Origin: Gammaproteobacteria bacterium
GTDB taxonomy: Bacteria; Pseudomonadota; Gammaproteobacteria; DSM-16500
Assembly: GCA_013288815.1 (NCBI GenBank)
Contig: JABDBD010000004.1
Span: 18,404-82,403 of the forward strand
DNA length: 64,000 nt
Direction: 5' to 3'
Position 1 is the first letter of the stretch; each line of letters opens with the position of its first letter. Below are positions 3,344-54,552 of the stretch, piece by piece. A model generated the notes under the pieces. The model had not been told where the DNA came from, searched no databases, and saw only the letters and a list, made by a program, of their open reading frames with translations. Position numbers and translations under genes: made by a program.

Positions 3344-3452
3344 CTATTTCGTAATTTTTTTTTAAAAACATTCCTACGGTAACCTGTTATTTTTTGGAAA
3401 AAAATAGTATGATTTCACGTTTGTTCGCCTGAAACTATAAAAAGGACCGTTT

Positions 3453-4613: not shown

Positions 4614-4626
4614 CGGAGCAGGTTAT

Positions 4627-5940
4627 ATGCAAGCACAAACCATTTCAAAAGTAACAACAGATTTTAAAGTCGCTGATATTGATCTTGCTGATTGGGGTCG
4701 AAAAGAAATTCGAATTGCTGAAACCGAAATGCCAGGATTAATGGCGCTGCGTGAAATGCATAAAGGTAAAAAACCTTTGAAAGGCGCCAGAATAGTTGGT
4801 TGCTTGCATATGACCGTACAAACAGCTGTGCTGATTGAAACCTTGATAGATTTAGGCGCTGAAGTGCGTTGGTCTTCTTGCAATATTTTTTCTACCCAAG
4901 ATCATGCGGCAGCAGCGATTGCAAAAGCAGGCATTCCAGTATTTGCATGGAAAGGTGAAACAGAAGAAGAGTATTGGTGGTGTGTAGAGCAAACTATTAC
5001 AGGCCCTAATGGATGGAAACCTAATTTGATTTTGGATGATGGCGGTGATTTAACATTAATGATCCATCAGAAATATCCTCAGCTTCTTGCTCATATCAAA
5101 GGTGTGTCTGAAGAAACAACGACAGGTGTGCATCGTCTTTATGAAATGCATAAAACAGGCGAATTAAAAGTTGCTGCAATCAATGTTAACGATTGCGTGA
5201 CAAAATCCAAGTTTGATAATTTGTATGGCTGTCGTGAATCGTTAGTAGATGGCATTAAGCGTGCGACAGATGTCATGATTGCTGGAAAAATTGCTGTGAT
5301 TTGCGGTTATGGCGATGTGGGTAAAGGCTGCGCACAATCATTAAGAGGATTGGGTGCGACAGTGTGGGTCACTGAAATCGATCCTATTTGTGCATTACAA
5401 GCGGCAATGGAAGGTTACCGTGTTGTCACGATGGATCACGCGGCATCTCTCGGTAATATTTTTGTAACCGCAACGGGTAATGCGAATGTCATTACTCATG
5501 AACATATGAAAAAAATGCAAGACCAAACGATAGTTTGTAATATCGGTCACTTTGATTCTGAAATTGATATTGCTTCATTGCGTCAATATCAATGGGAAAA
5601 TATCAAACCGCAAGTGGATCATGTGATTTTCCCTGATGGAAAACGTTTGATTGTGTTGGCGGAAGGACGTCTGGTGAATTTAGGTTGTGCGACGGGTCAT
5701 CCAAGTTTTGTGATGTCAACATCATTTACCAATCAAGTATTGGCTCAGCTAGAATTATGGCAGCATGCAGAAAAATATTCTATTGGCGTGCATATTTTAC
5801 CGAAAAAACTCGATGAAATGGTTGCGCGATTACATTTAAAAAAATTGGGTGTGCAATTAACTGAATTAACAGAGGAACAAGCTCACTACTTAAATGTTTC
5901 TGTTAATGGTCCTTATAAACCTGATCATTATCGATATTAA
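4627..5940 (+). CDS. ahcY: adenosylhomocysteinase
   Basis: [50 protein letters not shown]. Confidence 0.98.
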
Positions 5941-5964
5941 TTTACCAACAGGAAGTTAGTAACT

Positions 5965-6972
5965 ATGAAACAATACCAAGTATATGGCATAGGAAATGCT
6001 TTAGTTGATATCGATTTTGAAGTGAGCTCGTGCACTCTTGAACGGTTAAACATTGAAAAAGGTGTTATGACACTGATTGATGAGGCAACACATCATCAAT
6101 TGCTGGAAGAATTGGAAGGGATTAAGCATTTAAAAGCGTGTGGCGGCTCAGCTGCTAACACACTTTTTACGACCCAACAGTTAGGTGCAAAAACATTTTA
6201 TTCATGTAAAGTCGGAAATGATAAGTCCGGTGATTTTTTCTATCGAGAGTTGGTTTCGAATGGTATTCAAACCAATTTGAAAGAAGACGAGCGAGAAGGC
6301 GTCACTGGAAAATGCATTGTATTAGTCACACCTGATGCAGATCGTACGATGAATACATTTTTAGGTGCAACTTCAAAATTTTCAAAAAACGAACTGTCTA
6401 TCGATGCGTTACAAAATTCAGAATATCTTTATATAGAAGGCTACTTAGTGGCCTCACCAACAGGTTGTGAAGCGGCTATTTTAGCGTGCCAGTCTGCAGA
6501 AGCTGCTCAAGTCAAGGTTGCCTTGAGCTTGTCTGATCCGAATATGGTGACATATTTCAAAGATGGATTGTGTAACATCATTGGTGAACAAGTTGATCTC
6601 TTGTTTTGTAATGAGCGTGAAGCATTAATTTTTACAAATTCTCAAACGTTAAGTGATGCGAAAGACGAACTAAAAAAATATGCTAAAACATTTGCTATTA
6701 CCCGTGGAGGTGATGGTTCTGTTATTTATGATGGTCACCAATTCCATGAGGTTCCTGCGTATCCGGCGAATGTTGTCGATACAGTTGGAGCGGGCGATGT
6801 GTTTGCAGGCGCTTTTTTGTTTGGCATTACAAAAGGTTTTAGTTACTTAGAATCAGCCGATTTAGCGAGTTTTGCAGCTGCAAAAGTCGTTGCAAAATTC
6901 GGACCACGGTTGAATCAACAGGAGATTGCTGATGTTCAACAGGCTGTTTTGAAGGAAGTTGTTTTTGCTTAA
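5965..6972 (+). CDS. PfkB-family adenosine/nucleoside kinase
   Basis: GIGNALVD, GGSAAN, DRTMNTFLGA, DTVGAGD; directly follows ahcY. Confidence 0.85.
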   Translation: MKQYQVYGIGNALVDIDFEVSSCTLERLNIEKGVMTLIDEATHHQLLEELEGIKHLKACGGSAANTLFTTQQLGAKTFYSCKVGNDKSGDFFYRELVSNGIQTNLKEDEREGVTGKCIVLVTPDADRTMNTFLGATSKFSKNELSIDALQNSEYLYIEGYLVASPTGCEAAILACQSAEAAQVKVALSLSDPNMVTYFKDGLCNIIGEQVDLLFCNEREALIFTNSQTLSDAKDELKKYAKTFAITRGGDGSVIYDGHQFHEVPAYPANVVDTVGAGDVFAGAFLFGITKGFSYLESADLASFAAAKVVAKFGPRLNQQEIADVQQAVLKEVVFA

Positions 6973-7072
6973 TCAACGAAATCTACCCATACCCACTTTT
7001 AAAAAGAGTGTTGTTGCGTAAATCAGTTTTTTCCTTTTCATAAAGAAGGGATTTGAACATAGATAAAAAATT

Positions 7073-10000
7073 ATGACCCCAGTTTCTAGCAAAGAGATAT
7101 TAGAAAACGCACTGAAACAACGTATCCTACTGCTAGACGGCGGTATGGGTACAATGATTCAATCCTATCATTTGCAAGAACATGAGTATCGTGGTGAGCG
7201 CTTTAAAAATTTTCCAGTTGATTTAAAAGGGAATAATGATCTTTTATCGTTAACCCAGCCGCAGATTGTTTATGAAATTCACGCAGGTTATCTGGCTGCG
7301 GGTGCCGATTTGATTGAAACAAATACCTTTAATTCAACTGCCATTTCATTATCAGATTATCAAATGGCAGATCTTGCTTATGAGTTTAATTTTCAGGGGG
7401 CACGCTTAGCGCGGAAAGCTGCAGATGCTATGACACTGCAAACACCTGAAAAACCGAGATTTGTTGTAGGAATATTGGGTCCAACCAGTCGGACAGCATC
7501 GCTTTCACCAGATGTGAACGATCCTGGATTTCGAAATGTTCATTTTGATGAGTTAGTTGTAGCGTATACAGAGTCTATTCGCGGCCTAATTGATGGTTGT
7601 GTTGATATCTTGATGATAGAAACCATTTTCGATACGTTAAATTGCAAAGCTGCTATTTTTGCAGTTGAAAAGTATTTTGCAGATCATCAAATCAAATTGC
7701 CATTAATGATTTCAGGAACGATAACAGATGCCAGTGGCAGAACGTTATCAGGTCAAACCACACAAGCTTTTTGGCATTCTGTTCGTCATGCTAATCCATT
7801 TAGTATTGGTTTGAATTGTGCATTAGGTGCTGCAGCTTTGCGTCCATACATTCAAGAGTTATCGACTATTGCAGATACTTATATTAGTTTACATGCGAAC
7901 GCAGGGTTGCCCAATGCGTTTGGTGAGTACGATGAGTCACCTCAAGAAACGGCAGCGATTATTCGAGAATTTGCTGAGTCTGGCTTTATTAACATTGTAG
8001 GAGGTTGTTGTGGCACAACGCCACTTCATATTCGTGCTTTAGCTGAAACCGTTCAAACAATCAAACCACGCTCTATCTCCATCATCCCCAAAGCTTGTCG
8101 TCTCAGTGGTCTTGAGCCACTGACAATTTCTTCTGACTCTCTTTTTGTGAATGTAGGTGAGCGAACTAATGTGACTGGATCATTGCGTTTTGCAGAATTG
8201 ATTCGAAATAATGAATATACAACAGCACTAGAAGTAGCGCGTGATCAAGTCATTAATGGTGCGCAAATCATCGATGTCAACATGGATGAAGGCATGTTGG
8301 ATGCTGAGGCTGCCATGGTGAAATTTTTAAATTTAATCGCAGCAGAGCCTGATATTGCGCGTGTACCTGTGATGATAGACTCATCCAAATGGTCAGTGAT
8401 TGAAGCAGGATTAAAGTGCATCCAAGGAAAAGGCGTTATTAATTCCATTAGTTTGAAAGATGGAGAAGAAGCTTTTTTTGAAAAGGCTATACTTGCTAAA
8501 CGTTATGGCGCAGCAATTGTTGTGATGGCTTTCGATGAGCAAGGTCAAGCAGATACAGAAGAACGCAAAGTTGCAATTTGTCAGCGTTGTTATGATTTAT
8601 TAGTGAATAAAGTTCAATTTCCACCGGAAGATATTATTTTTGATCCCAATATTTTTGCGGTTGCGACGGGGATAGAAGAGCACAATAATTACGGCGTGGA
8701 TTTCATTCAAGCAACAAAGCGAATCAAAGAAACATTACCATTTGCATTGGTGAGCGGTGGTGTCAGTAACGTTTCATTTGCTTTTCGAGGCAATAACCCA
8801 ATACGCGAAGCGATTCATGCTGTATTTTTGTATCATGCAATACGCGCAGGAATGAGTATGGGGATTGTTAATGCAAATAGTTTGGCGATTTATGAAGATA
8901 TTCCAAAAGATTTGTTGGTGTTAGTTGAGGATGTTATTTTAAATCGATCGGCTACGGCTACCGATAAATTATTAGAAGTGGCCAATTCTGTCAAAGGACA
9001 AACAAAAGCAAAGACAGAAGATTTAAGCTGGCGTGAAAAACCGATTACAGAGCGTTTATCCTACTCATTAATTAAAGGGATCAACACCTATATTACAGAA
9101 GATACCGAAGAAGCCCGGATCGCATTAGGCAGTCCTTTGAAAGTGATAGAAGAACCGTTGATGGATGGCATGAATGTTGTTGGGGATTTATTTGGTGCAG
9201 GGAAAATGTTTTTGCCACAGGTTGTTAAAAGTGCGCGCGTCATGAAGCAAGCAGTTGCTTATCTGGTTCCGTTTTTAGAAGCAGAAAAAAAAGGTGTACA
9301 GCAACACAAAGGAAAACTGTTATTAGCTACGGTAAAAGGTGACGTACATGATATTGGAAAAAATATTGTTGGCGTCGTTTTACGTTGCAATAATTATGAT
9401 GTGATTGATTTGGGCGTGATGGTTTCTTGCGAAAAAATACTTGATATTGCTAAGAATGAGAATGTAGACATGATAGGCCTGAGTGGGTTAATCACGCCTT
9501 CATTGGAAGAGATGATTCATGTCGCGAAAGAGATGCAACGTCAACAATTTACGGTCCCATTGTTAATTGGTGGCGCAACGACTTCGCGTGCACACACAGC
9601 CATTAAAATTGAAGAGCATTATGCGCATGGAGTGGTTCATGTGGTTGATGCATCTAGAGCAGTGGGTGTGGCAAGTCAGTTATTAAGTGATGTTAACAAA
9701 GACAATTTTATTCAGCAAACTCGAGAAGAATATCAAACCTTACGTCAGCGTCATCAAAATAAAAAAAATGAAAATGAATTGATTTCATTGAGTGAAGCGC
9801 GTGAAAACAAATTAAAGGTCGATTGGCATAGTTATTCTCCTAAAAAGCCTGAATTTTTGGGTACGAAAGCATTTTCAGATTACTCAGTAGAGCAGCTAAT
9901 CGAATATATAGATTGGGCGCCTTTTTTTCAAGTGTGGGAATTGGCGGGTCGGTATCCAGCAATTTTACATGACGATGTTGTTGGCGAGACTGCGCGCACA

Positions 10001-10753
10001 TTATTTGCAGATGCGAAAGTGATGTTAGATAAGTTAGTCACAGAAAAATGGTTGACAGCTTCTGGTGTTATCGGATTCTTTCCAGCGAATAGTGTCGATG
10101 ATGATATTGAAATTTATACGGATGAAAATCGTGACCAGCTATTAATGACTTTTCGTATGTTGCGTCAACAAACACGAAAGTCATCAGGGAAACCGAATGC
10201 ATGCTTAGCTGACTTTGTTGCGCCAAAATCAACAGGAATTGCAGATTATTTAGGTGGTTTTGCTGTTACATCAGGATTGGGCTTAGAAAAATATATTTCT
10301 GACTTTGAGAAAAATCATGATGAATATAATAGTATTTTATTAAAAGCTCTCGCAGACCGTTTAGCAGAAGCATTTGCTGAGCATATGCATTTTCGTGTTC
10401 GTAAAGAATTTTGGGGCTATCATCCCGCTGAAAGCTTAACGAATGAAGAGTTAATCGCTGAAAAATATTTGGGTATTCGTCCGGCGCCTGGTTACCCAGC
10501 ATGTCCTGATCATACGGAAAAACCTTTTTTATTTCATTTGCTCAATGTTCAGCAGAATGCAAATATGTCGCTCACTGAAAATTTTGCTATGTTACCAGCG
10601 TCTTCTGTGAGTGGGTTTTATTTTTCTCATCCGCAGTCACATTATTTTGGTGTGGGGAAAATTCATCAAGATCAAGTTGTTGATTATGCAAAACGCAAAC
10701 AAATGGATCTGACTCTTGTTAAACGATGGCTTGCGCCACATCTTACGGATTAA
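7073..10753 (+). CDS. metH: cobalamin-dependent methionine synthase
   Basis: [34 protein letters not shown]12 motif, [12 protein letters not shown]; 1226 aa. Confidence 0.98.
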
Positions 10754-10765
10754 AGGAATGTTGAG

Positions 10766-11647
10766 ATGAATCATAGTGGATTGCGAATCAGTTTTGAATT
10801 TTTCCCACCTAAAACAATTGAAGGAGAAAAGTTGCTTCACAAGGCAGTAAAAGCTCTTTCTGAAACGCAACCCGATTTTTTTTCAGTAACCTATGGAGCC
10901 GGAGGAACAACGCAAACTGGGACATTGGATGTTGTTAAAATGATACAACAGAAAGCCCATCTCAACGTTGCGCCTCATTTAACATGCGTAGGCTCTACTC
11001 GTGATAACATCACTGAGATAATTAATCAGTATAAAAATAATGGTGTCCGTCGCATTGTTGCATTGCGAGGGGATTTGCATCCTCATGCGGAGCACATCGG
11101 TGATTTAAAGTTTGCTTATGAGCTGATTGCATTAATTCGAAAATTAACTCACGATACGTTTCATATTGAAGCTGCTGCCTATCCTGAGTTTCATCCACAG
11201 GCAGAAAACGCATTGATGGATATGAAGAACTTTAAGCAAAAAATAAATGCGGGAGCCAATAGTGCTATTACTCAGTATTTCTTCAACCCAGATTCGTATT
11301 TTTACTTTTTAGATTATTGTGCAAAACTCGGTATTTATGTGCCGGTTATTCCTGGTATAATGCCGATCACGAATTTTACAAAACTAGTGCGTTTTTCAAG
11401 CTTATGCGGTGCGGAAATTCCTAGATGGATTTATAAGCGTTTGGAAGCGTATGGTGATGATGAGCTTTCACTTCAATCATTTGGTTTGGAAGTGGTCTAT
11501 GATCTATGCGAACGATTAATTAAAGGTGGAGCGCCTGGCTTGCATTTTTATACGCTTAATCAAGCAGAAGCGACGCTTAAATTGTTGAAGATGCTCAATT
11601 TAAAAAGCCAGTTGCCAGTTGTAAAAAAGGTAGATATAAAAGTTTGA
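10766..11647 (+). CDS. metF: 5,10-methylenetetrahydrofolate reductase
   Basis: SFEFFPPK, SVTYGAGG, ALRGD, AITQYFF, GLHFYTLN. Confidence 0.96.
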   Translation: MNHSGLRISFEFFPPKTIEGEKLLHKAVKALSETQPDFFSVTYGAGGTTQTGTLDVVKMIQQKAHLNVAPHLTCVGSTRDNITEIINQYKNNGVRRIVALRGDLHPHAEHIGDLKFAYELIALIRKLTHDTFHIEAAAYPEFHPQAENALMDMKNFKQKINAGANSAITQYFFNPDSYFYFLDYCAKLGIYVPVIPGIMPITNFTKLVRFSSLCGAEIPRWIYKRLEAYGDDELSLQSFGLEVVYDLCERLIKGGAPGLHFYTLNQAEATLKLLKMLNLKSQLPVVKKVDIKV

Positions 11648-11664: not shown

Positions 11665-12678
11665 ATGGATATTGACAATACTTCACAAGCACATCCTAAA
11701 CAATTATCTATTGTTGTCCCCGTTTATAAAGAAGCTTCGAATATCCAACCATTTCTTCAGCGTTTAGAGCCTGTTCTTGCTAAGCTAAATATCCAATATG
11801 AGATTATCTTTTGTCTAGATCCTTCACCGGATCATACTGAGGAAGTGATATTAAAAGAAATTGAGCGAAATACGCATATTCAGTTACTTGTATTTTCCAG
11901 ACGGTTTGGGCAGCCTGCTGCAACGATGGCTGGAATTCTTCATTGCAAAGGCCAAGCTTGTGTTGTGATCGATGTGGATTTACAAGATCCTCCAGAATTA
12001 ATTGTAATGATGTATCACAAGTTTAAAGAAGGCTTTGAAGTTGTCTATGCAAAACGAAATTCACGCAAAGGTGAAACGTTAATTAAGCGGTTTCTTTCTT
12101 TTATTGGATACAAACTCATTAATAAATTGAGTGATGTTTATATTCCCCGAGATACCGGCGATTTTCGCATTTTATCGAGACGTGTGATAGAAGAGATTCG
12201 ATTGCTGCAAGAAACACATGGTTTTTTACGTGGCTTAGTCGCATACGTCGGATTCAAACAAACATTTGTGGCGTATGATAGAGATGAACGATTTGCTGGG
12301 CAGGGTAATTATAATCGATTTACTGGCTCACTTAAAATTGGATTGAATGGATTAATCAGTTTTAGTAGCAGACCTTTGCAGGTTATGTCGATTAGCGGTG
12401 CATTTTTTGCAGGGTTCAGTTTTCTTCTGGGTACTTGGTATGTTTTTCAAAAGCTCATTGGAATTAATCTAACACCAGGATTATCGACAACAGTATTGTT
12501 TATTACTTTCTTTTCGGGCGTGCAATTACTTTCTCTGGGTTTGATGGGTGAATATATAGGCCGAATTTATGATGAAGTGAAAAAACGTCCTATGTTTATT
12601 TTAGATCGGAACGTGACACATGATTCCTTGATGAAAAAAAAGGAAACTACTAAAGAAAATAAATGTGAATATTTATAA
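11665..12678 (+). CDS. GT2 polyprenol-phosphate glycosyltransferase (GtrB/ArnC-like)
   Basis: FSRRFGQPAA, DVDLQDPPE, TGDFR, two C-terminal TM helices, GEYIGRIYDEVKKRP. Confidence 0.9.
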   Translation: MDIDNTSQAHPKQLSIVVPVYKEASNIQPFLQRLEPVLAKLNIQYEIIFCLDPSPDHTEEVILKEIERNTHIQLLVFSRRFGQPAATMAGILHCKGQACVVIDVDLQDPPELIVMMYHKFKEGFEVVYAKRNSRKGETLIKRFLSFIGYKLINKLSDVYIPRDTGDFRILSRRVIEEIRLLQETHGFLRGLVAYVGFKQTFVAYDRDERFAGQGNYNRFTGSLKIGLNGLISFSSRPLQVMSISGAFFAGFSFLLGTWYVFQKLIGINLTPGLSTTVLFITFFSGVQLLSLGLMGEYIGRIYDEVKKRPMFILDRNVTHDSLMKKKETTKENKCEYL

Positions 12679-13097
12679 TGTCTTTACATTTGCAATACAT
12701 AAACTACCTTTTAGCGAATAAAAAATCGATTATTTCCTTTTGTGTTGTTGGTTTATTGACAGCAATTATTTATTTTATTGCTTTCACTGTTTTTTGGAAA
12801 ATATTAGGTATGGGATATATCCTATCTCTTACCTTATCTAACATTTTTTCCATCTTATTTCATTTTACAACGAATAATAGAATTACTTTTCAAAATAAAA
12901 ATACCCGGTTTTCAACTAAAGTAGCAAAGTATTCAGTTCTGCTTACAATAAATTATGTCATCACTGTGTTGATAGTGAGTGCTATGGTTGAAAAATTTAA
13001 TGTGTCTCCTTATCTGGGGATTATTATAGCCATTGGCGTCAATGTAAATTTAGGTTATCTCATGTCGCGTTACTGGGTGTTTCGAAATATAGAATAG
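12678..13097 (+). CDS. GtrA-family polyprenol-phosphate-sugar flippase
   Basis: 139 aa, four hydrophobic segments, ends YLMSRYWVF; coupled to the GtrB-like gene. Confidence 0.82.
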   Translation: MSLHLQYINYLLANKKSIISFCVVGLLTAIIYFIAFTVFWKILGMGYILSLTLSNIFSILFHFTTNNRITFQNKNTRFSTKVAKYSVLLTINYVITVLIVSAMVEKFNVSPYLGIIIAIGVNVNLGYLMSRYWVFRNIE

Positions 13098-13112
13098 AAA
13101 AGGAGAGTTTGA

Positions 13113-14069
13113 TTGCGTTATTTTATTACCGGATGCGCAGGATTTATTGGCAGCAATTTAGCGGACAGACTGCTGAGTGAGGGCCATGAAGTCGTTGGTT
13201 ACGATAACTTTTCTACGGGCTTTAATGAATTTTTAGTGAATGCGAATGAATCTTCACGATTTAAGTTAGTTAAGGCGGACTTATTAGATAAAGATCTATT
13301 AATTGCCGCAATGAAAAATATCGATATTGTTTGTCATATGGCTGCCAATGCAGATGTTCGTTATGGTACTCATCATCCACACAAAGATTTAGAACAAAAT
13401 GCAATCGCAACATTCCATGTGTTAGAAGCGATGAGAGAGAATGGCGTAAAAAAAATTGCTTTTGCATCAACGGGCTCTATTTATGGTGAAGCAGAGATGA
13501 TTCCTACACCTGAACATGCTCCTTTTCCGATTCAAACGTCACTCTATGGAGCTTCTAAGTTAGCTGCTGAGGGGCTTATTCAAGCGTATTGTGAGGGATT
13601 TGATTTTCAAGCCTATATTTTTCGGTTTGTTTCAATTCTCGGTGAGCGCTATACGCATGGACACATCTTTGATTTTTACAAACAATTACTGAATGATGCG
13701 ACGAGGCTTACCATTTTGGGAAATGGTAAACAACGCAAATCTTATTTATATATTCAGGACTGCATAGATGGAATGCTCTCTGCATTACAATTATCAACAA
13801 ACAAAGTCAATATTTATAATTTAGGAACGGATGAATATTGCGATGTCAATAATTCAATCGGTTGGATTAGTGAATTTTTAAATGTGAGCCCTGAAAAAAT
13901 TTATACGGGTGGAAATAAAGGTTGGATAGGTGACAACCCATTTATATTTCTCGATTGTGAACGCATGCGTAACTTAGGTTGGAAACCAAAGCTATCGATA
14001 CGTGAGGGTGTCACAAAAACAATTAAATATTTGACAGAAAATCCATGGATAATGGAGTTTAGAGAATGA
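13113..14069 (+). CDS. NAD-dependent nucleotide-sugar epimerase (LmbM-like candidate)
   Basis: GCAGFIG, ASTGSIYG, YGASK; TTG start preceded by an AGGAG RBS. Confidence 0.88.
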   Translation: MRYFITGCAGFIGSNLADRLLSEGHEVVGYDNFSTGFNEFLVNANESSRFKLVKADLLDKDLLIAAMKNIDIVCHMAANADVRYGTHHPHKDLEQNAIATFHVLEAMRENGVKKIAFASTGSIYGEAEMIPTPEHAPFPIQTSLYGASKLAAEGLIQAYCEGFDFQAYIFRFVSILGERYTHGHIFDFYKQLLNDATRLTILGNGKQRKSYLYIQDCIDGMLSALQLSTNKVNIYNLGTDEYCDVNNSIGWISEFLNVSPEKIYTGGNKGWIGDNPFIFLDCERMRNLGWKPKLSIREGVTKTIKYLTENPWIMEFRE

Positions 14070-15358
14070 AAATTGCCGTGATAGGATTATGGCATTTAGG
14101 CTGTGTTACCGCAGCTTGTTTAGCGAAAGCAGGCCATGATGTTGTTGGCTATGATAATAATGCAGAGATCATACAACAATTAAAAATCGGAAAAGCTCCT
14201 TTATTTGAGCCGGGATTAGATGGTCTCATTCTTACTATGCAACAGCAAAGAAAATTAAAATTTAATATGGATGCGAATCATATTACAGACGCAGACATTG
14301 TATGGGTGACGTTTGACACACCCGTTGATCAGGATGATAGAGCAGACACGCTTTGGGTTGAGGCTGAGATAAAAAAGTTATTTCCTTATCTTAAAAATGA
14401 TGGCGTCATGATTATTTCTTCGCAGTTACCCGTAGGCACGATAGATAAACTTCATAAAGAATTTACTCACTGTCTGCCAAAAAATAAAATAACACTCGTT
14501 TGTATTCCTGAAAATTTACGTTTAGGAAAATCAATTGCCGTGTTTTCTCATCCTGATCGAATTATTGTTGGACTGGATGATCTAGAAAAAAAATCTGAAA
14601 TTCAAACATTGCTGAAACCTATCTCAGAAAATATTGTGTGGATGTCTGTCGTTTCTGCAGAAATGACAAAACATGCCATTAATTCCTTTCTCGCTGTATC
14701 CGTTACGTTTATCAATGAGCTAGCAGCAATATGCGAAACAGTTGGAGCAAATGCAAAAGACGTTGAGGCTGGATTAAAAACGGAAGAACGGATTGGACCA
14801 AAGGCTTACTTGCGTCCAGGTGGTGCAATTGCAGGCGGTACGTTGATGCGAGACGTAAATTATTTAGAAGAAATAGGTAAGAATAAACATCGTGAAACCT
14901 GTTTGCTTTCATCTGTTATCAAGAGTAATCACTATCACAAACAATGGTCGTGTCGTAAATTGTTAGATGTGTTAAAAAATATAAATGGCAAAACAATTGC
15001 TATGCTAGGTTTAACTTACAAAGCGGACACAGATACATTGCGGCGTTCTTCAGCGATAGAAACGTGCGAATGGTTAGCAAAAGAAGGTGTGGTTATTCAT
15101 GCTTATGATCCTGGTATTGCTTGTTTGCCTCCTCAACTAGCCCAGTTTATTTCGATTAAACATACTGTTGCCGATGCATTGAAGACGGCAGATGCAGTCA
15201 TCATATCGACTGAACATCCTCAATTTCAAGAATTGACAGCAAATGATTTTTGTCAATCATCGATAAAACAAATTGTGCTTGATCCTAGCGGTTTTGTTGC
15301 AAAAAAATTAATGAATGATAGTCGTATCCAATATTTTTCAGTCGGAGTTCCTTCATGA
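14066..15358 (+). CDS. UDP-glucose/GDP-mannose dehydrogenase-family protein lacking the catalytic Cys (LmbL-like candidate)
   Basis: GLWHLG, PENLRLG, AEMTKHAIN, GGTLMRD in place of GGxCxxxD. Confidence 0.85.
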   Translation: MKIAVIGLWHLGCVTAACLAKAGHDVVGYDNNAEIIQQLKIGKAPLFEPGLDGLILTMQQQRKLKFNMDANHITDADIVWVTFDTPVDQDDRADTLWVEAEIKKLFPYLKNDGVMIISSQLPVGTIDKLHKEFTHCLPKNKITLVCIPENLRLGKSIAVFSHPDRIIVGLDDLEKKSEIQTLLKPISENIVWMSVVSAEMTKHAINSFLAVSVTFINELAAICETVGANAKDVEAGLKTEERIGPKAYLRPGGAIAGGTLMRDVNYLEEIGKNKHRETCLLSSVIKSNHYHKQWSCRKLLDVLKNINGKTIAMLGLTYKADTDTLRRSSAIETCEWLAKEGVVIHAYDPGIACLPPQLAQFISIKHTVADALKTADAVIISTEHPQFQELTANDFCQSSIKQIVLDPSGFVAKKLMNDSRIQYFSVGVPS

Positions 15359-16227
15359 ATTTATCTGGGTGTTGTGTTCTTATAACGGGTGCGAGTCAAG
15401 GATTGGGTTTTGAAATTGCAAAACACTTTGTCTCGGAAGGTGCACGTGTCATGATTTGTGCGCGTGATGTATCAAATTTATTGTCTGCTAAAAATGAATT
15501 ATTAAAAATTGCAGTGAATGATGCTCAGGTTTTTTCATTGACGGCAGATATTTCAAAAAAAGATGACGTTGAAAGATTGGTGAGTGAGTCGATTAGTAGA
15601 ATGGGTAAATTAGATGTGCTGGTTGCAAATGCTGGTATTTACGGCCCAAAAGGGTGCATTGAAGAAACGGATTGGGAAGAGTGGTCTGCTGCGATCGATA
15701 TCAATCTGAAGGGAACAGTGCTGCAATGCCGTTCAGTTATTCCGTATTTTAAAAAACAAGGCAGCGGTAAAATAATCATTTTATCAGGCGGCGGGGCAAC
15801 CAAGCCTATGCCATTTCTCAGTGCATATGCAGCATCAAAAGCAGGCGTTGTGCGCTTTGCTGAAACATTAGCAGAAGAAGTCAGTGAGTATCATATTGAT
15901 GTCAATACCATTGCTCCAGGTTCCCTAAACACGCGACTATTGGGTGAGATATTAGAAGCTGGGCCCCAAAAAGTGGGTGAGAAATTCTACGCGAGTGCTT
16001 TACAGCAACAAGAGAATGGCGGTACGGCGTTTAGTATACCGGTGTCATTATGTTCTTTCTTAGCATCATCAAAAAGTAATGGAATAACCGGAAAGTTACT
16101 GAGTGCATTATGGGATCCTTGGTCTAAACTTCCGGAATTAATCGATGAATTGAAACGCTCGGATATTTATACGTTGCGACGAATCATTCCTAGCGACAGA
16201 AATAAATCATGGGATGAAATGCTGTGA
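15355..16227 (+). CDS. short-chain dehydrogenase/reductase
   Basis: TGASQGLG, ANAG, YAASK. Confidence 0.88.
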   Translation: MNLSGCCVLITGASQGLGFEIAKHFVSEGARVMICARDVSNLLSAKNELLKIAVNDAQVFSLTADISKKDDVERLVSESISRMGKLDVLVANAGIYGPKGCIEETDWEEWSAAIDINLKGTVLQCRSVIPYFKKQGSGKIIILSGGGATKPMPFLSAYAASKAGVVRFAETLAEEVSEYHIDVNTIAPGSLNTRLLGEILEAGPQKVGEKFYASALQQQENGGTAFSIPVSLCSFLASSKSNGITGKLLSALWDPWSKLPELIDELKRSDIYTLRRIIPSDRNKSWDEML

Positions 16228-17213
16228 ATATTGCAATCATAGGATGTGGTTTAATCGGAGAAAAACGGGCAAATTCACTCTTGTCGCAGCATGTTGTATT
16301 GTGTGTTGATGTTGTCGAAAGCAAGGCAGAATCACTTGCAAAAAAATTTCCAGCTTGTCAAGTTTCATCAAAATGGGAAGATGCCATTAATGATCCTAAG
16401 ATTGAGTTGATTATTATAGCTACGCTGCATCACTCCTTAGCGGAGATTGCATTGGCAGCAGCGCAACAAGGAAAACATATTTTAATTGAAAAACCAGGTG
16501 CAAGAAATTCGGCGGAATTAAAACTTATCATGGAAGCTGCGAAAAAATCAGGTTCTTTAATTCATGTTGGATTTAATCATCGATATCATCGTGCGCTACG
16601 CAAAGCCAAGGAATTAATTGATCAAAATGAATTAGGTGATCTCATGTTCGTTCGTGGTCGATATGGGCACGGCGGTAGACTTGGTTATGAAAAAGAATGG
16701 CGTGCGCAACCTGCTTTGTCTGGTGGCGGTGAATTGATTGATCAAGGTGTGCATCTCATCGATCTTGCGCGCTGGTTTTTAGGCGAGTTCACCCATGTTC
16801 AGGGTCATGCACATACTTATTTTTGGGATATGCCTGTCGATGACAATGGTTTTTTAATTTTGAAAACAGCCAAACAACAAACTGCTTTTTTACATGTCAG
16901 TTGCACTGAATGGAAGAATTTATTTTCATTTGAAATTTATGGTCGCCAAGGAAAAATTGATATTCATGGTTTGGGTGGTAGTTATGGACTAGAGAAAATT
17001 ACATTTTATAAAATGTCTCCAACGATGGGGCCTCCAGAGACGTTTTCATGGGAATATCCTATGTTGGATAATTCCTGGGAGGTGGAAATGGCAGAATTTT
17101 TGAATGATATTAAAAATCATCGCCAACCGAAGACAAATTTGCACGATGCAGAATCCGCTTTGAAAATTGTGGAAGAAATTTATAGGATATCTCACTATGA
17201 TTATTGTACGTAG
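16224..17213 (+). CDS. Gfo/Idh/MocA oxidoreductase (LmbZ-like candidate)
   Basis: GCGLIG, IEKPG, GFNHRY, GGGELIDQGVHLIDL. Confidence 0.88.
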   Translation: MNIAIIGCGLIGEKRANSLLSQHVVLCVDVVESKAESLAKKFPACQVSSKWEDAINDPKIELIIIATLHHSLAEIALAAAQQGKHILIEKPGARNSAELKLIMEAAKKSGSLIHVGFNHRYHRALRKAKELIDQNELGDLMFVRGRYGHGGRLGYEKEWRAQPALSGGGELIDQGVHLIDLARWFLGEFTHVQGHAHTYFWDMPVDDNGFLILKTAKQQTAFLHVSCTEWKNLFSFEIYGRQGKIDIHGLGGSYGLEKITFYKMSPTMGPPETFSWEYPMLDNSWEVEMAEFLNDIKNHRQPKTNLHDAESALKIVEEIYRISHYDYCT

Positions 17214-18177
17214 CCCTTTACGCATATCGTTGGGTGGTGGTGGAACTGACTTACCTTCTTATTATCAAGATCATACGGGTTTTTTAATTGCAGCTGCGAT
17301 TGATAAATACGTTTATATCACATTGCATCAAACTTTTGTGCAAGAGTTAATTATTAAATATTCCAAATTAGAAAGAGTCTATTCGTTAGATGAAATTGAG
17401 CATCCCATTATTCGCGAAGCATTACGTTATTTGTCTGTTCCTGCGCCTCAGCTTGAAATCACTAGCATGGCAGATATCCCTTCTGGGACAGGATTAGGTT
17501 CTTCAGGAAGCTTTACGACTGCTTTGCTAAAGGCGCTGCATACTCTCAAAAAAAACTTAATTCATCCGCGTGAATTAGCTGAGCAAGCATGCCACATTGA
17601 GCTTAATTTATTGAAAGAACCTATAGGCAAACAAGATCAATATATTGCTGCTTATGGTGGGATCACTTGTTTTCGTTTTTTAACAAATCATCAGGTCGAA
17701 GCTTGGCCGCTGCAGATTGAGCAAGAAACATTGTTTAATTTAGAAGATAACTTATTACTTTTTTTTACTGGATATTCACGGTCAGCTTCTACTATTCTGT
17801 TGGAACAAGATCAAAAATCGAAAGAAAAAGAATCCGATATGATATCTAATTTACATTTTATTAAAGAGCTTGGCCTAAAAAGTAAAGACGCATTGGAATC
17901 TGGAAATTTGCTGGAATTTGCTGAGCTAATGAATGTTCACTGGGAATATAAAAAGCAGCGCTCACGGAATATGAGTAATAATAATATTGATGATTGGTAT
18001 GCATTGGCCAGAAAAAATGGTGCGCTCGGTGGAAAAATGATTGGAGCTGGCGGAGGTGGCTTTCTCATGTTCTACACACAGGACAAGCTAAAATTGCGAC
18101 ACACTATGCGAGAGGCTGGATTAAGTGAAGTGCGTTTTCGGTTTGATTTTTCAGGAACGCAGGTGTTAGCACAGTAA
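17197..18177 (+). CDS. GHMP-family sugar-phosphate kinase (HddA/LmbP-like)
   Basis: RSPLRISLGGGGTD, GTGLGSS, GKQDQY, GAGGGGF; ATG at 17197 preferred. Confidence 0.9.
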   Translation: MIIVRSPLRISLGGGGTDLPSYYQDHTGFLIAAAIDKYVYITLHQTFVQELIIKYSKLERVYSLDEIEHPIIREALRYLSVPAPQLEITSMADIPSGTGLGSSGSFTTALLKALHTLKKNLIHPRELAEQACHIELNLLKEPIGKQDQYIAAYGGITCFRFLTNHQVEAWPLQIEQETLFNLEDNLLLFFTGYSRSASTILLEQDQKSKEKESDMISNLHFIKELGLKSKDALESGNLLEFAELMNVHWEYKKQRSRNMSNNNIDDWYALARKNGALGGKMIGAGGGGFLMFYTQDKLKLRHTMREAGLSEVRFRFDFSGTQVLAQ

Positions 18178-18186
18178 GGAATTAAC

Positions 18187-18888
18187 ATGTTACCTATCGT
18201 GATTATTGCTGGAGGATTAGCAACACGGCTGCGTCCTGTCACTGAGACCATACCGAAGTCGCTGATTGATATTAATGGCGAACCTTTCGTCTCTCATCAG
18301 CTGCATCTATTGAGAGAAAATGGTATAAAGGAAGTCGTGATGTGTTTAGGATATTTAGGCGAGAAAATTGTCGATTTTGTCGGTAACGGGCATCAGTTTA
18401 ATCTTCATGTGCAGTATGTTTTTGATGGTGAAAAACTTTTAGGTACCGCTGGTGCAATCAAAAAAGCATTATCATTGCTGAGTGAAAATTTTTTTGTTAT
18501 CAATGGCGATTCTTATCTTCCGTGTGATTATTTGGCAATACAAAATGCTTTTTTTAAGTTAAATAAAAAAGCATTAATGACAGTATTCCGTAATGAAAAT
18601 GTTGGGGATATGAGTAATGTTGAATATGTCGATGGTGTCATTGTGAATTACGACAAACAAAATCGAAATGACCGCATGAAATATATCGATTATGGATTAG
18701 AAGTATTCTCTCAAAAAGCATTTGAAGATCTCTCTGACAATCAAGTGTGTGATTTAAGTGTGATTTATCAAAAATTAATAAGAGAAAGTCAATTAGCTGC
18801 TTGTGAAGTGAAACAGAAATTTTATGAGAATGGATCATTCAGTGGAATTGCGGATCTTGAATCTTATTTACAGATTGAGAGTGTTTAA
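18187..18888 (+). CDS. sugar-1-phosphate nucleotidyltransferase (HddC/LmbO-like)
   Basis: AGGLATRLRP...IPKSL, LLGTAGA, NGDSY. Confidence 0.88.
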   Translation: MLPIVIIAGGLATRLRPVTETIPKSLIDINGEPFVSHQLHLLRENGIKEVVMCLGYLGEKIVDFVGNGHQFNLHVQYVFDGEKLLGTAGAIKKALSLLSENFFVINGDSYLPCDYLAIQNAFFKLNKKALMTVFRNENVGDMSNVEYVDGVIVNYDKQNRNDRMKYIDYGLEVFSQKAFEDLSDNQVCDLSVIYQKLIRESQLAACEVKQKFYENGSFSGIADLESYLQIESV

Positions 18889-18911
18889 TTTTAAAAAATA
18901 AAGGAGCAATA

Positions 18912-19532
18912 ATGCATTTTATAAAAACTTTTTTAACTGAGGCTGCCGAAATTCTCGCACAACTCAACACCCACCAAATTGAAAATGCGATTCAGATCTT
19001 GGCGTCACTGAAAAAAAATAATGGCAGATTGTTTGTGCTAGGTGTAGGCGGCAGTGCAGGTAATGCTTCCCATGCCGTGAATGATTTTCGAAAAATTGTC
19101 GGTATCGAAGCGTATGCTCCAACCGACAATGTCTCTGAATTAACTGCACGTACGAATGATGAAGGTTGGTCTACTGTTTTTTCAAACTGGTTAGCAGTGA
19201 GTCGTTTAAATTCGAATGATGCTATTCTTATTCTATCCGTTGGTGGAGGTAATCTCGAAAAAAATGTGAGCCCTAATTTAGTTGAAGCATTAATATATGC
19301 AAAAAAGATCGGTGCAAAAATCATAGGAATTGTTGGTAGAGATGGTGGCTATACCGCAAAAGTAGCAGATGCTTGTATCATTATTCCCACGCCTAATCCT
19401 GACAATACAACACCGCATGCAGAAGCATTTCAAGCAGTGATTTGGCATTTATTTGTTTCTCATCCAGCATTAAAAAAATCACAAACGAAGTGGGAGTCTG
19501 TTGTCTATGAAAAGGAAAGCAGTGTTTTTTGA
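18912..19532 (+). CDS. SIS-domain sugar-phosphate isomerase (divergent GmhA/LmbN-like)
   Basis: GVGGSAGNASHAVND, TARTNDEGW, TPHAEAFQ. Confidence 0.85.
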   Translation: MHFIKTFLTEAAEILAQLNTHQIENAIQILASLKKNNGRLFVLGVGGSAGNASHAVNDFRKIVGIEAYAPTDNVSELTARTNDEGWSTVFSNWLAVSRLNSNDAILILSVGGGNLEKNVSPNLVEALIYAKKIGAKIIGIVGRDGGYTAKVADACIIIPTPNPDNTTPHAEAFQAVIWHLFVSHPALKKSQTKWESVVYEKESSVF

Positions 19533-20043
19533 TAGAGATGGCGTTCTAAATTATGCCGTGCTGAGAAATGGAAAAACGTTTCCACCTCCAACGTTAGATG
19601 ATTTGCGCATTCCACCAGATGCGTTTTCTGCATTAACATCTTTAAAAGCAGCGGGATATTTATTAGTTGGAGCGACTAATCAACCAGATGTAGCAAGAGG
19701 CACAACGCCACGCCAAACGGTTGAAGCAATTAATTTAAAATTAATGCAAGAGTTGCCGTTGGATGAAATTCGTGTGTGTTATCACGACAATCAAGATAAT
19801 TGTTTATGTCGAAAACCACAGCCAGGATTATTATTAGAGGCTGCGAGTATACATGCGATTGATTTATCGAACAGTATCATGATTGGAGATAGAGCTAAGG
19901 ATTTAGAGGCGGGAGCGCGAGTGGGTTGTAAAACAATTTGGATGCGCTATGATCATACTTTGGAAGAGGTGCAAGGTTCGGATTTTATTGCAACTTCACT
20001 ATCAGAAGCTGCGCAGTGGATACAAGCCTTACAAAATATTTAA
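19507..20043 (+). CDS. gmhB: HAD-IIIA sugar bisphosphate phosphatase (GmhB/LmbK-like)
   Basis: FFDRDGVLN, TNQ, CYH...CLCRKPQPG, IGD. Confidence 0.85.
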   Translation: MKRKAVFFDRDGVLNYAVLRNGKTFPPPTLDDLRIPPDAFSALTSLKAAGYLLVGATNQPDVARGTTPRQTVEAINLKLMQELPLDEIRVCYHDNQDNCLCRKPQPGLLLEAASIHAIDLSNSIMIGDRAKDLEAGARVGCKTIWMRYDHTLEEVQGSDFIATSLSEAAQWIQALQNI

Positions 20044-20058
20044 TTCAAGGAGGGATGA

Positions 20059-20796
20059 ATGTTAATACCAAATCTAAAAGTAAAATTATTTGCAGATGGT
20101 GCGGATAAAAAAGGAATGTTTGAGATGAATCAGCATTCCTTGATTAGCGGGTTTACAACCAACCCTACCTTAATGAAAAAGGCGGGTATCACAAATTACA
20201 AAGCATTCGCTCAAGAAATAGTACAGATGATTCCTGACAAACCCATCTCATTTGAGGTTTTCTCGGATAACTTTTATGAAATGCATGATCAAGCATTAGA
20301 AATTTCCAGCTGGGGCGAAAATGTTTACGTTAAAATTCCAGTGACGAATACAAAAGCAGAATCCTCCTTAAGGTTGATTCGGCAGCTAGCTAAAGCGGGC
20401 GTTAAACAGAATGTCACAGCGTTGATGACCTTAGGCCAAGTTCGGGATGTCAGCATGGCATTGGCCGAAGGGCCTTCAGCATACATATCCGTGTTTGCGG
20501 GGCGTATCGCAGATACGGGCCGAGATCCCATTCCGGTCATGGCAGCAGCAATTGAAATGCTGAGGCCTTATCCACAACTTGAGCTCATATGGGCGAGTAC
20601 TCGCGAACTTTTGAACATATTTCAAGCGAATGAAATTGGCTGTCATATTATTACTGTGCCCAATGATTTGCTCAATAAATTTGGCAATATCGGTAAAGAT
20701 CTGCACGAGTTTTCATTAGAAACAGTCAATATGTTTTATCAGGATGCGGTTAGTGCTGGGTTTTCTTTGGACATTCCTGTGTCGGCTGAGAATTAA
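20059..20796 (+). CDS. short transaldolase/FSA-family enzyme (LmbR-like candidate)
   Basis: GFTTNPTL, VYVKIP Schiff-base Lys, NVTA, SVFAGRIADTG. Confidence 0.88.
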   Translation: MLIPNLKVKLFADGADKKGMFEMNQHSLISGFTTNPTLMKKAGITNYKAFAQEIVQMIPDKPISFEVFSDNFYEMHDQALEISSWGENVYVKIPVTNTKAESSLRLIRQLAKAGVKQNVTALMTLGQVRDVSMALAEGPSAYISVFAGRIADTGRDPIPVMAAAIEMLRPYPQLELIWASTRELLNIFQANEIGCHIITVPNDLLNKFGNIGKDLHEFSLETVNMFYQDAVSAGFSLDIPVSAEN

Positions 20797-24685: not shown

Positions 24686-25891
24686 ATGAACTGCAGAAAC
24701 TGCCATGGTGAAAACTTAGAATTAGTGATTGACTTAGGAATGCAGCCGTGGGGAAATAATTTTTTACCAATTTCTGTCAATCAAACAGTACCTCTTTATC
24801 CTCTGCAATCATTTTTTTGTCATGGCTGCACAATGATGCAGTTGGGATACACTGTGCCAAAAGAAACAATGTTTGTAGATCATAATTATGTTTCTGGGAC
24901 TACTCATTCGTTAAGAGTTCATTTTAAAAAACTCTGTGAGGATATGTTGAAGAAAATAAAATTTCAAGATACAGATTATGTTCTGGATATTGGTGGAAAT
25001 GATGGAACGTTTCTCGCGCAATTTGAAAATAAAGTGAAAGTATTAAATGTTGATTCGGGTGTAAAACAAGCTGAGATATCAAATTCGAATGGAATAGAAT
25101 GCATTAATCAATTTTTTAATTTAAAGACGGCTCAACAAATCTTATCGACACGAGGGCATGCGAAAGCAATTCATGGGTCAGGAGTATTTTTTCATCTGGA
25201 AGAGTTGCATTCTGTCTTTGAAGGCATTGAATTGTTGTTAGCAAAAGATGGTGTGTTGGTTGCTGAATTTATTTATCTTCCTGATATGGTGCGCAATGGT
25301 GCATACGATCAAATTTATCATGAGCATCTTTTATATTATACTTTGCATTCCTTCAGTAAGTTATTAGCTAAGCATCATCTTGAAATTCATGATGCTGAGT
25401 TATTACCTATTCATGGTGGAAGTTGTATTGCTTACATATCGCATCAGGGCGAACAAAAACAAACGGAACGATTAAAAGACTTGTTGGCAATCGAAGAAAA
25501 TGAAGGATTTAATACAGCTGATTGTTATAAGCAATTTGCAAAGCGAATTACGGGTATGCGAAATGATTTGGTCGCAATCATTCGGGATCTAAAAAATCAA
25601 GGTAAATCCATTCAAGCCTTAGGTGCCCCTGTTAAAGGTTCGACGATTATTAATTACTGTCAATTATCACATAACGAATTAGATTGCGCTGTTGAAGTGA
25701 ATCGTTTGAAGTGTGAAACGTATTTCCCCGGGACGAAAATTCCAGTCTACCATCAAGATGAAGTTGAAAAACCCGATGCTTATCTATTGTTGTCTTGGAA
25801 TTTTAAAGATGAAATTCTTTCTAAGTTAAACGATTTTCGCGCCAACGGCGGAAAAATTATTTCTCCGCTTCCTCAACCAGAATTAATTTAA
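24686..25891 (+). CDS. SAM-dependent NDP-hexose C-methyltransferase (TylCIII/NovU-type)
   Basis: N-terminal CxxC...LGMQPWGN...CxxC zinc site, DIGGNDG, YDQIYHEH, HGGS, GAPVKG, LLSWNF. Confidence 0.88.
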   Translation: MNCRNCHGENLELVIDLGMQPWGNNFLPISVNQTVPLYPLQSFFCHGCTMMQLGYTVPKETMFVDHNYVSGTTHSLRVHFKKLCEDMLKKIKFQDTDYVLDIGGNDGTFLAQFENKVKVLNVDSGVKQAEISNSNGIECINQFFNLKTAQQILSTRGHAKAIHGSGVFFHLEELHSVFEGIELLLAKDGVLVAEFIYLPDMVRNGAYDQIYHEHLLYYTLHSFSKLLAKHHLEIHDAELLPIHGGSCIAYISHQGEQKQTERLKDLLAIEENEGFNTADCYKQFAKRITGMRNDLVAIIRDLKNQGKSIQALGAPVKGSTIINYCQLSHNELDCAVEVNRLKCETYFPGTKIPVYHQDEVEKPDAYLLLSWNFKDEILSKLNDFRANGGKIISPLPQPELI

Positions 25892-28506: not shown

Positions 28507-28556
28507 ATATTGCCTGCTTTTTGAAAGTTAGATGAATAAAAATAGCAAGTGACTAG

Positions 28557-28743
28557 CTAAGGACCTGTGCAACAATAACTTATCTTTCTTGCATCTCATC
28601 TTGAGGCTATCTTTGAACGTTTTATTCTTCGAGAAAACACTTACATAGCGCAACTATGCGCGTATTTTCTCGAAGAATAAAACGTTCAAATCTAACCTCA
28701 ATCTGAGCGCAAGAAAGATAAGTTATTGTTGCACAGGTCCTAA
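28557..28743. mobile_element. palindromic MITE/RPE-like hairpin element, copy B
   Basis: CTAA at 28557-28560 and 28740-28743; perfect arms GGACCTGTGCAACAATAACTTATCTTTCTTGC / GCAAGAAAGATAAGTTATTGTTGCACAGGTCC; internal motifs shared with copy A. Confidence 0.88.
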
Positions 28744-41223: not shown

Positions 41224-41455
41224 AATGGTCAATACCTTAAACGTTTATATATATTAATGTTTATACTATTGATCATTATAGCAGATATTTTATGTAAGAG
41301 AATAGAATTTGCATGAGTATGTACCTCATAGCAGAATCTGCATTGACCTTTAATATAGTAATATAGCTACCATACTGTAATTGTTTTTTTTCATAAAAAT
41401 GCATATAATTACCCTGTAAAAATGACAATTGAATGATAAAATACAGGGTATTTTT

Positions 41456-44150: not shown

Positions 44151-44275
44151 CTTTTTTCGCTCCGGGCCACAAAAATCTGACATTTCTGAACCTTTTTGGA
44201 ATCCGAAAACCAATTGTCAACAGACCCTATATTGCATATCTCAAAATGCAATGGAGATAGGTTGATAGTAGGTAG

Positions 44276-54544: not shown

Positions 54545-54552
54545 GGATATTT

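Follow-up and report, generated by a model that had tools for sequence, protein, structure and literature searches.

A candidate horizontally mobile operon for a nucleotide-activated higher-carbon sugar, probably an octose, with its own lipid-carrier module

We analyzed a stretch of 64,000 nucleotides (the window in the following) from contig JABDBD010000004.1 (positions 18,404 to 82,403 of the forward strand) of a gammaproteobacterial metagenome-assembled genome (MAG; GCA_013288815.1, 2.48 Mb, 83% complete) and focused on a block of eleven genes on the plus strand at window positions 11665-20796. On balance, this block is best explained as a horizontally mobile operon that makes a higher-carbon sugar in nucleotide-activated form (most likely an octose) and is combined with a dedicated lipid-carrier module. 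The enzyme logic of this cassette is otherwise known only from the biosynthesis of lincomycin. All eleven open reading frames (ORFs) are co-directional with junctions of -47 to +23 nt, and no terminator-like site was found inside the block. A promoter scan of the block gave results no better than those for shuffled sequences, and operon boundaries can therefore not be defined from it. Pfam and NCBIfam scans placed each ORF in the family that had been proposed in a first-pass annotation, which described the block as eleven tightly coupled genes.

The first two genes encode a family 2 glycosyltransferase (GT2) resembling the polyprenyl-phosphate glycosyltransferases GtrB, ArnC and PgfS (11665..12678, 337 amino acids [aa], PF00535) and a small membrane protein of the GtrA family (12678..13097, 139 aa, PF04138, 68.6 bits). 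Among the NCBIfam models, the GT2 scored best with PgfS (243 bits) and ArnC (138 bits) but reached neither equivalog cut-off. These genes are followed by an extended short-chain dehydrogenase/reductase (SDR) similar to nucleoside diphosphate (NDP)-sugar epimerases and dehydratases, which belongs to the same type of family as LmbM from the lincomycin pathway (13113..14069, 318 aa, PF01370, 169.7 bits). This epimerase scored 144 bits with the GalE model, under the cut-off, and its top PDB match is 3ehe (283 bits), annotated as UDP-glucose 4-epimerase GalE-1. Next come a homologue of Ugd-family NDP-sugar dehydrogenases with three UDPG_MGDP_dh domains (14066..15358, 430 aa; Ugd-like protein), a classical SDR that is presumably a ketoreductase (15355..16227, 290 aa, PF00106, 181 bits), and a Gfo/Idh/MocA oxidoreductase of the LmbZ-type family (16224..17213, 329 aa, PF01408 and PF22725). 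The subsequent anomeric sugar-phosphate kinase of the GHMP family (17167..18177, 336 aa, PF00288/PF08544, HddA/LmbP-type) matches the PDB entries 4usk/4usm, a putative sugar kinase (∼155 bits), and 3k85, a heptose phosphate kinase (153 bits). The block ends with a sugar-1-phosphate nucleotidyltransferase of the HddC/MurU/LmbO type (18187..18888, 233 aa, PF00483), which scored 116 bits with the MurU model, again under the cut-off, an LmbN-type SIS-domain ketose-phosphate isomerase that is distant from GmhA (18912..19532, 206 aa, PF13580), a HAD-IIIA sugar bisphosphate phosphatase of the GmhB/LmbK type (19501..20043, 180 aa, TIGR01656, 120.8 bits), and a short transaldolase (20059..20796, 245 aa, PF00923, 144 bits) of the 'staph-type' described by TIGR02134. 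No Lmb sugar enzyme was among the PDB matches of the cassette proteins.

We subsequently determined how far this arrangement is conserved. A search with the Ugd-like protein, restricted to one genome per species, yielded 264 relatives, and the best 80 loci were analyzed. The nine genes from the epimerase to the transaldolase were defined as the core and were counted in the 53 loci with sufficient flanking sequence. All nine core genes are present in 36 of these loci, in 29 cases in the same order and on the same strand within 9 kb. Therefore, the grouping of these genes is far beyond chance. The transaldolase closes the cassette in 48 of the 53 loci, and 75 of the 80 analyzed loci have the classical SDR gene flanked by those for the Ugd-like and Gfo proteins. 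The core proteins share 45-86% identity in Coxiellaceae/Legionellaceae-type MAGs, Acidobacteriota, Polyangia, Planctomycetota, Mycolicibacterium, Burkholderiales, Chlorobiaceae and Methanoregulaceae, and conservation is strongest for the GHMP kinase (up to 86%). Furthermore, natural fusions were observed among the relatives of the Gfo protein (529 cluster representatives at E<1e-30): both a nucleotidyltransferase-Gfo (P0186) and a Gfo-HAD fusion (P0202) tie parts of the cassette together. Taken together, the notion that this gene set represents one conserved functional unit is supported.

The distribution of the cassette is wide and patchy. The loci nearest to that of the window come from Coxiellaceae, Legionellaceae, a Legionella sp., and unclassified Gammaproteobacteria. 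One Coxiellaceae locus appears to belong to a genome from the order of the source organism, since its transaldolase match has identical coordinates. Besides such Coxiellaceae/Legionellaceae-type MAGs, carriers include Acidobacteriota, Polyangia, Planctomycetota, Mycolicibacterium, Bdellovibrio, Chlorobiaceae, Burkholderiales, Asaia, Aquabacter, Omnitrophota, Elusimicrobia, and the archaeal Methanoregulaceae; cultured carriers are Paraburkholderia dinghuensis, Pollutimonas bauzanensis, an Aquabacter sp., and a Mycolicibacterium sp. In a tree of eight concatenated cassette proteins the window groups with the Coxiellaceae/Legionella-type MAGs, but the phyla are otherwise intermixed, indicating that the whole unit has been transferred horizontally. 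Within the order of the source organism, the Ugd-like gene occurs in 25 of 86 genomes and in 10 of 21 genera, and in a Solibacteraceae-type family it was found in 7 of 151 genomes.

The Ugd-like protein matches PDB entry 4a7p with 208 bits and has the three-domain architecture as well as the catalytic Lys, Asn and Asp positions in common with Ugd, WecC and AlgD. In contrast to these enzymes, it lacks the catalytic Cys of the second oxidation step, as the first-pass annotation had noticed when it listed a Cys-less homologue of UDP-glucose dehydrogenase. Alignment to 4a7p, 3gg2 and the window's own WecC revealed a Thr (GGT) at this position in the window protein and in all 80 relatives. In addition, a Trp replaces the second Gly of the GxGxxG motif in the dinucleotide loop, resulting in the sequence G-[LM]-W-H-L-G that is invariant in all 81 proteins (GLWHLG in the window). 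Since both replacements occur throughout, the mechanism of the family cannot yield a uronic acid here. At the level of sequence, these features define a separate subfamily; the nearest database relative of the window protein shares just 62% identity with it.

The four putative activation enzymes of the cassette (isomerase, kinase, phosphatase and nucleotidyltransferase) raise the question of whether the product is simply a modified NDP-heptose with seven carbons, an explanation that we regard as rather unlikely, although it is the most serious competitor of an octose. In such a pathway, the transaldolase would form sedoheptulose-7-phosphate from erythrose-4-phosphate and fructose-6-phosphate, and activation by enzymes like GmhA, HddA, GmhB and HddC would be followed by redox tailoring and transfer to a lipid carrier. 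Sedoheptulose-7-phosphate is the classical product of transaldolases, and modified heptoses are familiar constituents of capsules and O-antigens. The active site of the cassette transaldolase is standard: relative to the Thermoplasma enzyme (PDB 3s0c), the Asp, Asn, Glu, Lys, Thr, Ser-x-Phe and Arg residues are all kept, and a Phe is found where enzymes of the aldolase type have a Tyr. Moreover, the closest characterized relatives of the SIS, GHMP, HAD and nucleotidyltransferase proteins are heptose enzymes. The pathway to GDP-D-glycero-alpha-D-manno-heptose (GmhA/HddA/GmhB/HddC), as encoded in capsule and O-antigen loci of Campylobacter, Yersinia and Burkholderia, involves the same four activation chemistries and folds as the cassette. 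However, this pathway uses sedoheptulose-7-phosphate from central metabolism and has no dedicated transaldolase, which is an integral part of the cassette. The tailoring by a Cys-less Ugd-like protein, a Gfo protein and a classical SDR also differs from known heptose modifications, and we know of no heptose pathway that combines a Cys-less Ugd homologue with a Gfo/Idh/MocA enzyme.

A heptose product is also difficult to reconcile with the remaining gene content of the genome. Separate from the cassette, the window carries gmhA (2037-2651), hddC (2651-3343), and an HddA-like gene (44276-45334), in agreement with the first-pass annotation, and the genome additionally contains HldE and a separate, better-scoring GmhB-type gene on contig C33. 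The cassette enzymes are only distantly related to these proteins, with 25% identity between the SIS protein and GmhA of the window, 31.5% between the nucleotidyltransferase and HddC, and 38% between the kinase and the HddA-like protein. On the respective equivalog models, they reached 55 of the required 209 bits for GmhA, 166 of 600 for HddA, 114 of 178 for GmhB and 87 of 300 for HddC, and hence none of the cut-offs; the window's own gmhA and hddC products scored 190 of 209 and 256 of 300 bits on the same models. Because routes to both ADP- and GDP-heptose are already present, together with a transketolase that supplies sedoheptulose-7-phosphate, the cassette is not needed for heptose. This agrees with the earlier suggestion that a second gene set is unlikely to be needed just for heptose. 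The transaldolase is retained in nearly all loci, even though sedoheptulose-7-phosphate is already available in this genome.

Archaeal carriers provide an argument for eight carbons. Transketolase_N was absent from four of the eight archaeal carriers checked by Pfam searches (G243, G244, G246 and G247), and two of them (G243 and G244) also lack Transket_pyr. In G243, a member of the Methanoregulaceae, the contig with the cassette accounts for 2.43 Mb of a 2.5-Mb genome. Both G243 and G244 carry a 6-phospho-3-hexuloisomerase of the ribulose monophosphate pathway and a type-II dehydroquinate synthase, which belongs to a pathway independent of erythrose-4-phosphate. Such methanogens derive their pentose phosphates from fructose-6-phosphate and enter aromatic biosynthesis without erythrose-4-phosphate. 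Without transketolase, erythrose-4-phosphate and sedoheptulose-7-phosphate should therefore be unavailable, whereas fructose-6-phosphate and ribose-5-phosphate are available. All transaldolases in G243 and G244 are of the cassette type. With the precursors of a C7 sugar missing, ribose-5-phosphate would be the only sensible transaldolase acceptor for a sugar longer than a hexose, leading to octulose-8-phosphate as in the LmbR reaction. We therefore consider it fairly probable that the product of the cassette has eight rather than seven carbons. G243 also contains a second cassette-type transaldolase with 57% identity (L092, C1:1374500-1394400). It is encoded beside an epimerase-like gene and a GT2 gene whose product is 62% identical to that of the window, while no Ugd-like, Gfo or kinase genes are present at this locus, which may represent a reduced or variant module.

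Based on these considerations, the following scheme can be proposed. The cassette transaldolase would transfer a C3 unit from fructose-6-phosphate (or sedoheptulose-7-phosphate) to ribose-5-phosphate, and the resulting octulose-8-phosphate would be converted to the aldose by the SIS isomerase. Phosphorylation at C1 by the GHMP kinase, removal of the terminal phosphate by the HAD-IIIA phosphatase and the action of the nucleotidyltransferase would then yield an NDP-octose. Redox tailoring would be left to the four other core enzymes, namely epimerase, Cys-less Ugd-like protein, Gfo/Idh/MocA oxidoreductase and classical SDR. A candidate route is a 6,8-dehydration with subsequent keto-reduction to an 8-deoxy-octose; this particular route is a reasonable analogy only. 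Finally, the GtrB-like GT2 would load the sugar onto polyprenyl phosphate, GtrA would aid its translocation, and a glycosyltransferase of the GT-C type encoded elsewhere would attach it to lipopolysaccharide or another envelope glycan. We infer all substrates and products of this scheme by analogy.

A number of observations bear on the lipid-carrier step. The GT2 possesses a C-terminal transmembrane helix (residues 273-291), and its stop codon is overlapped by the start of gtrA, whose product has three transmembrane helices according to a hydropathy scan. Orthologues of the GT2 with 62-77% identity are encoded beside the cassette in 22 of the 64 loci with at least 4 kb of upstream sequence, including archaeal loci, and GtrA is weakly conserved (25-41%) in 13 other loci. 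The other PgfS-like GT2 of the genome is only 36% identical to the cassette protein. Because of the membrane helix, the overlap with gtrA, the co-inheritance and this low identity, the sequence data support the assignment of the cassette GT2 as a dedicated polyprenyl-phosphate sugar synthase. In having a membrane-anchored GT2 that matches PgfS and ArnC best, with a GtrA-family protein encoded directly behind it, the module resembles the GtrA/GtrB/GtrC, ArnC/ArnT and PgfS systems. These three-component systems include a GT-C partner, in contrast to the cassette GT2 within the window. They also use UDP-glucose or UDP-4-deoxy-4-formamido-arabinose (UDP-Ara4FN) as donors, whereas the donor of the cassette enzyme would, by analogy, be a higher-carbon NDP-sugar. 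The three PMT_2 proteins of the genome are encoded elsewhere, unlinked to the cassette. On contig C24 (L089), the second PgfS-like GT2 is accompanied by an ArnT-like GT-C; a PMT_2 gene lies beside hldE on C15 (L090) and another near a further gtrA on C47 (L088). The genome thus harbors at least two further lipid-carrier glycosylation modules. In other loci, large unannotated polytopic proteins, two of them with DUF6311, abut the GT2 or the transaldolase gene; DUF6311 was not found in the source genome at its 83% completeness.

The gene neighborhood also bears on a second, improbable alternative, according to which the cassette makes some other product: a C9 sugar with a hexose-6-phosphate as acceptor, a sugar built on another pentose phosphate, or, instead of a component of an envelope glycan, a soluble metabolite or the sugar of a natural product. 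Two thirds of the related loci have no GT2 within 10 kb, the accessory methyltransferases and aminotransferases vary between loci, and the lincosamide precedent is a secondary metabolite. On the other hand, the surroundings of the cassette are those of a large polysaccharide locus (Wza/Wzb/Wzc, WecA-like, GT4 and GT2 genes), no nonribosomal peptide synthetase, mycothiol-type or resistance genes are located nearby, and other loci encode a Bac_transf initiating transferase, glycosyltransferases or the oligosaccharyltransferase STT3. With respect to the C9 variant, hexose phosphates are to our knowledge not known as transaldolase acceptors.

The accessory genes differ from locus to locus. A class-I S-adenosylmethionine-dependent methyltransferase or a methyltransferase-GT2 fusion of ∼540-590 aa is encoded between the GT2 and gtrA in related loci (L011:7807-8598, L069:3487-4380 and L072:6990-8618); the window has no methyltransferase gene at this position. 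The presence of methyltransferases inside related modules suggests that the sugar is often methylated. A DegT/DnrJ/EryC1 aminotransferase was identified in L048 (4026-5282) by a family scan of this member alone, and its similarity cluster has further members in L026, L039, L075 and L077, i.e., in five related loci in total. Loci with such a DegT-type gene may produce an amino sugar, closer to lincosamine.

According to the least probable alternative, the transaldolase is an ordinary pentose-phosphate enzyme at the end of a heptose-type operon and the eleven genes do not constitute one pathway. Indeed, it is the sole PF00923 gene in the source genome and likewise in four relatives checked, and it passes the cut-off of TIGR02134 (324.6 versus 282 bits), a model that NCBI simply names 'transaldolase'. 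But 47 of the 86 genomes of the order have no PF00923 gene at all, and the short transaldolase tracks the Ugd-like gene (called at E<=1e-80), being present in 24 of 25 genomes with this gene compared to 13 of 61 without it, a descriptive comparison since related genomes are not independent. Therefore, within this order the transaldolase appears to accompany the cassette as an accessory gene and not to be a housekeeping gene. Given that it also stands last in the cassettes of carriers whose phyla usually have pentose-phosphate enzymes of their own, and that, of the genomes checked, five carriers possess a second, ordinary short transaldolase besides the cassette copy (G242, G248, G250, G252 and G253), a housekeeping function is very improbable. 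A classical long transaldolase was found in seven genomes of the order. For the thirteen genomes with a short cassette-type transaldolase and no Ugd-like gene at the above threshold, other transaldolase-containing module variants may exist.

We next compared the cassette with the lincomycin sugar pathway, using the family assignments of the Lmb and Ccb proteins published in PMC4351081 (Table 2 and Table DS1-1). Both systems cluster a transaldolase, SIS, GHMP, HAD, nucleotidyltransferase, GalE-like epimerase, Ugd-like and Gfo family protein, and in both a dedicated transaldolase feeds a heptose-like activation line. At the family level, this agrees with the first-pass annotation, which had counted eight of the nine lincosamide sugar families. 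It had also correctly pointed out that the ninth, an aminotransferase, is missing among the eleven genes: the lincosamide route includes a C6 aminotransferase (LmbS/CcbS), in place of which the window cassette has the classical SDR. LmbM, LmbL, CcbZ and CcbS convert GDP-octose to GDP-lincosamide (PMC12945683). Lincosamide gene clusters contain carrier-protein fusions as well as thiol-transfer, amide-forming and resistance genes, all of which are absent from the cassette. Conversely, the cassette differs from them in being located in a surface-polysaccharide locus together with a lipid-carrier GT2 and GtrA.

The nearest relatives of the Ccb proteins outside the lincosamide clusters, as listed in PMC4351081 (Table DS1-1, 2015), are found in Solibacter usitatus for CcbK (49% identity), an uncultured acidobacterium for CcbZ (40%), Sorangium for CcbN (39%) and CcbP (37%), Acidobacterium for CcbO (38%), Methanosarcina for CcbM (46%), Thermodesulfatator for CcbL (33%) and, in the case of CcbR, in a Cellulomonas transaldolase (47%). 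Cassette carriers also occur in the groups to which several of these organisms belong, a suggestive overlap. The identities (33-49%) are lower than those between cassette members from different phyla. The transaldolases differ further, since CcbR has 222 aa and is nearest to the Cellulomonas enzyme, whereas the cassette protein has 245 aa and is of the TIGR02134 type; LmbR/CcbR looks like a different transaldolase subfamily. Two sequences from published lmbN primers (PMC4351081, S1 Table) had no match in the genome contigs searched. A 422-aa relative of the Gfo protein (P0123, among the best 150 of the 529 representatives) was considered as a possible LmbZ/CcbZ, but turned out to be a member of an archaeal-type, rearranged cassette that adjoins an STT3 oligosaccharyltransferase gene. 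The names of ten other candidates, chosen for a composition of the high-GC type, were uninformative.

Several points weigh against an octose destined for the envelope and against a close tie to lincomycin. CcbL and CcbR, and thus at least two of the enzymes, are probably independent recruitments. Because these two point elsewhere and the Ccb identities are low overall, we regard the cassette as working like the Lmb route and not as a member of it. As outlined above, characterized heptose enzymes are the best relatives of all four activation enzymes, and TIGR02134 carries no functional name beyond 'transaldolase', with no sequence feature of the cassette protein indicating ribose-5-phosphate as acceptor. 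The argument from transketolase-free carriers relies on MAGs and on Pfam searches of few archaeal genomes, and it is inapplicable to the source genome, which has a transketolase; a heptose product is possible in hosts of this kind. A literature search on envelope octoses or the cassette returned only papers on lincosamides, apramycin, octulose metabolism and yersiniose. In the literature searched, we found no report of cassette carriers with a linear octose in their envelope glycans and no characterization of the cassette. Moreover, no GT-C, Wzx or Wzy gene is present within the 64-kb window, and the polytopic proteins encoded next to the cassette in the closest relatives (L003 and L005) have no homologue in the 83%-complete genome. 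The first-pass annotation had proposed an NDP-8-deoxy-octose for the envelope. Of this proposal, eight carbons are indirectly favored by the existing heptose routes, the accessory transaldolase and the transketolase-free carriers, and the coupling to a polyprenyl-phosphate-type GT2 and GtrA holds; the 8-deoxygenation and the periplasmic step are putative.

The cassette is flanked by further genes for metabolism and surface polysaccharides. Upstream and on the same strand (2037-11647), gmhA and hddC are followed by a full methyl-cycle block consisting of metK, ahcY, a PfkB kinase gene, metH and metF, with a gap of 17 nt between the end of metF and the start of the GT2 gene. Downstream, genes for a DUF2442 protein, a 986-aa GT4-GT2 protein, a sugar C-methyltransferase (24686-25891) and a reductase were identified. 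The remaining window is a surface-polysaccharide island with CDP-glucose genes and genes for Wza/Wzb/Wzc, WecB/WecC, a WecA-like transferase and PseB/PseC. This island is interrupted by genes for a HipA-like kinase with a helix-turn-helix (HTH) partner (39621-41232), two DUF4143/AAA_14 ATPases (34745-35893 and 41429-42781) and a TnpB fragment (43901-44251), which suggests mobile or defense-related insertions. In the middle of the glycan locus, two large ORFs of 410 and 1119 aa are located on the minus strand (27274-32099), for which neither a Pfam family nor a predicted membrane helix was found. A heparinase II/III-like protein (550 aa), followed by a 705-aa protein in which a zinc-type alcohol dehydrogenase is fused to a Gfo/Idh/MocA domain, is encoded at 52892-56670, with the WecB/WecC/WcaI-like genes on one side and the gene for the WecA-like transferase on the other.

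The occurrence of a lincosamide-type logic for higher sugars in an envelope-glycan and lipid-carrier setting represents a new combination that is partly supported by our data. Extending this to all carriers, we tentatively propose, as a possibility that is at present doubtful, a widespread and horizontally exchanged cassette that delivers a linear octose nucleotide, possibly an 8-deoxy-octose as the oxygen analogue of lincosamine, via a polyprenyl-phosphate carrier into the envelope glycans of many bacterial phyla and into archaeal glycans. If true, cell surfaces would regularly be built with octoses other than 3-deoxy-D-manno-octulosonic acid (Kdo), and this would have been overlooked so far. 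The sugar branch of lincomycin biosynthesis would then be an offshoot or a parallel of an envelope pathway, which would hint at the origin of lincosamide sugar chemistry. The small size and self-contained nature of the cassette, together with its occurrence in cultured strains, make this question directly testable. If the product is indeed an octose, it would constitute a new class of monosaccharides in bacterial and archaeal surface glycans, made by a compact cassette moving between phyla. For the source organism, a relative of intracellular bacteria of the Coxiella/Legionella type, the sugar would act as a variable antigen on the cell surface.

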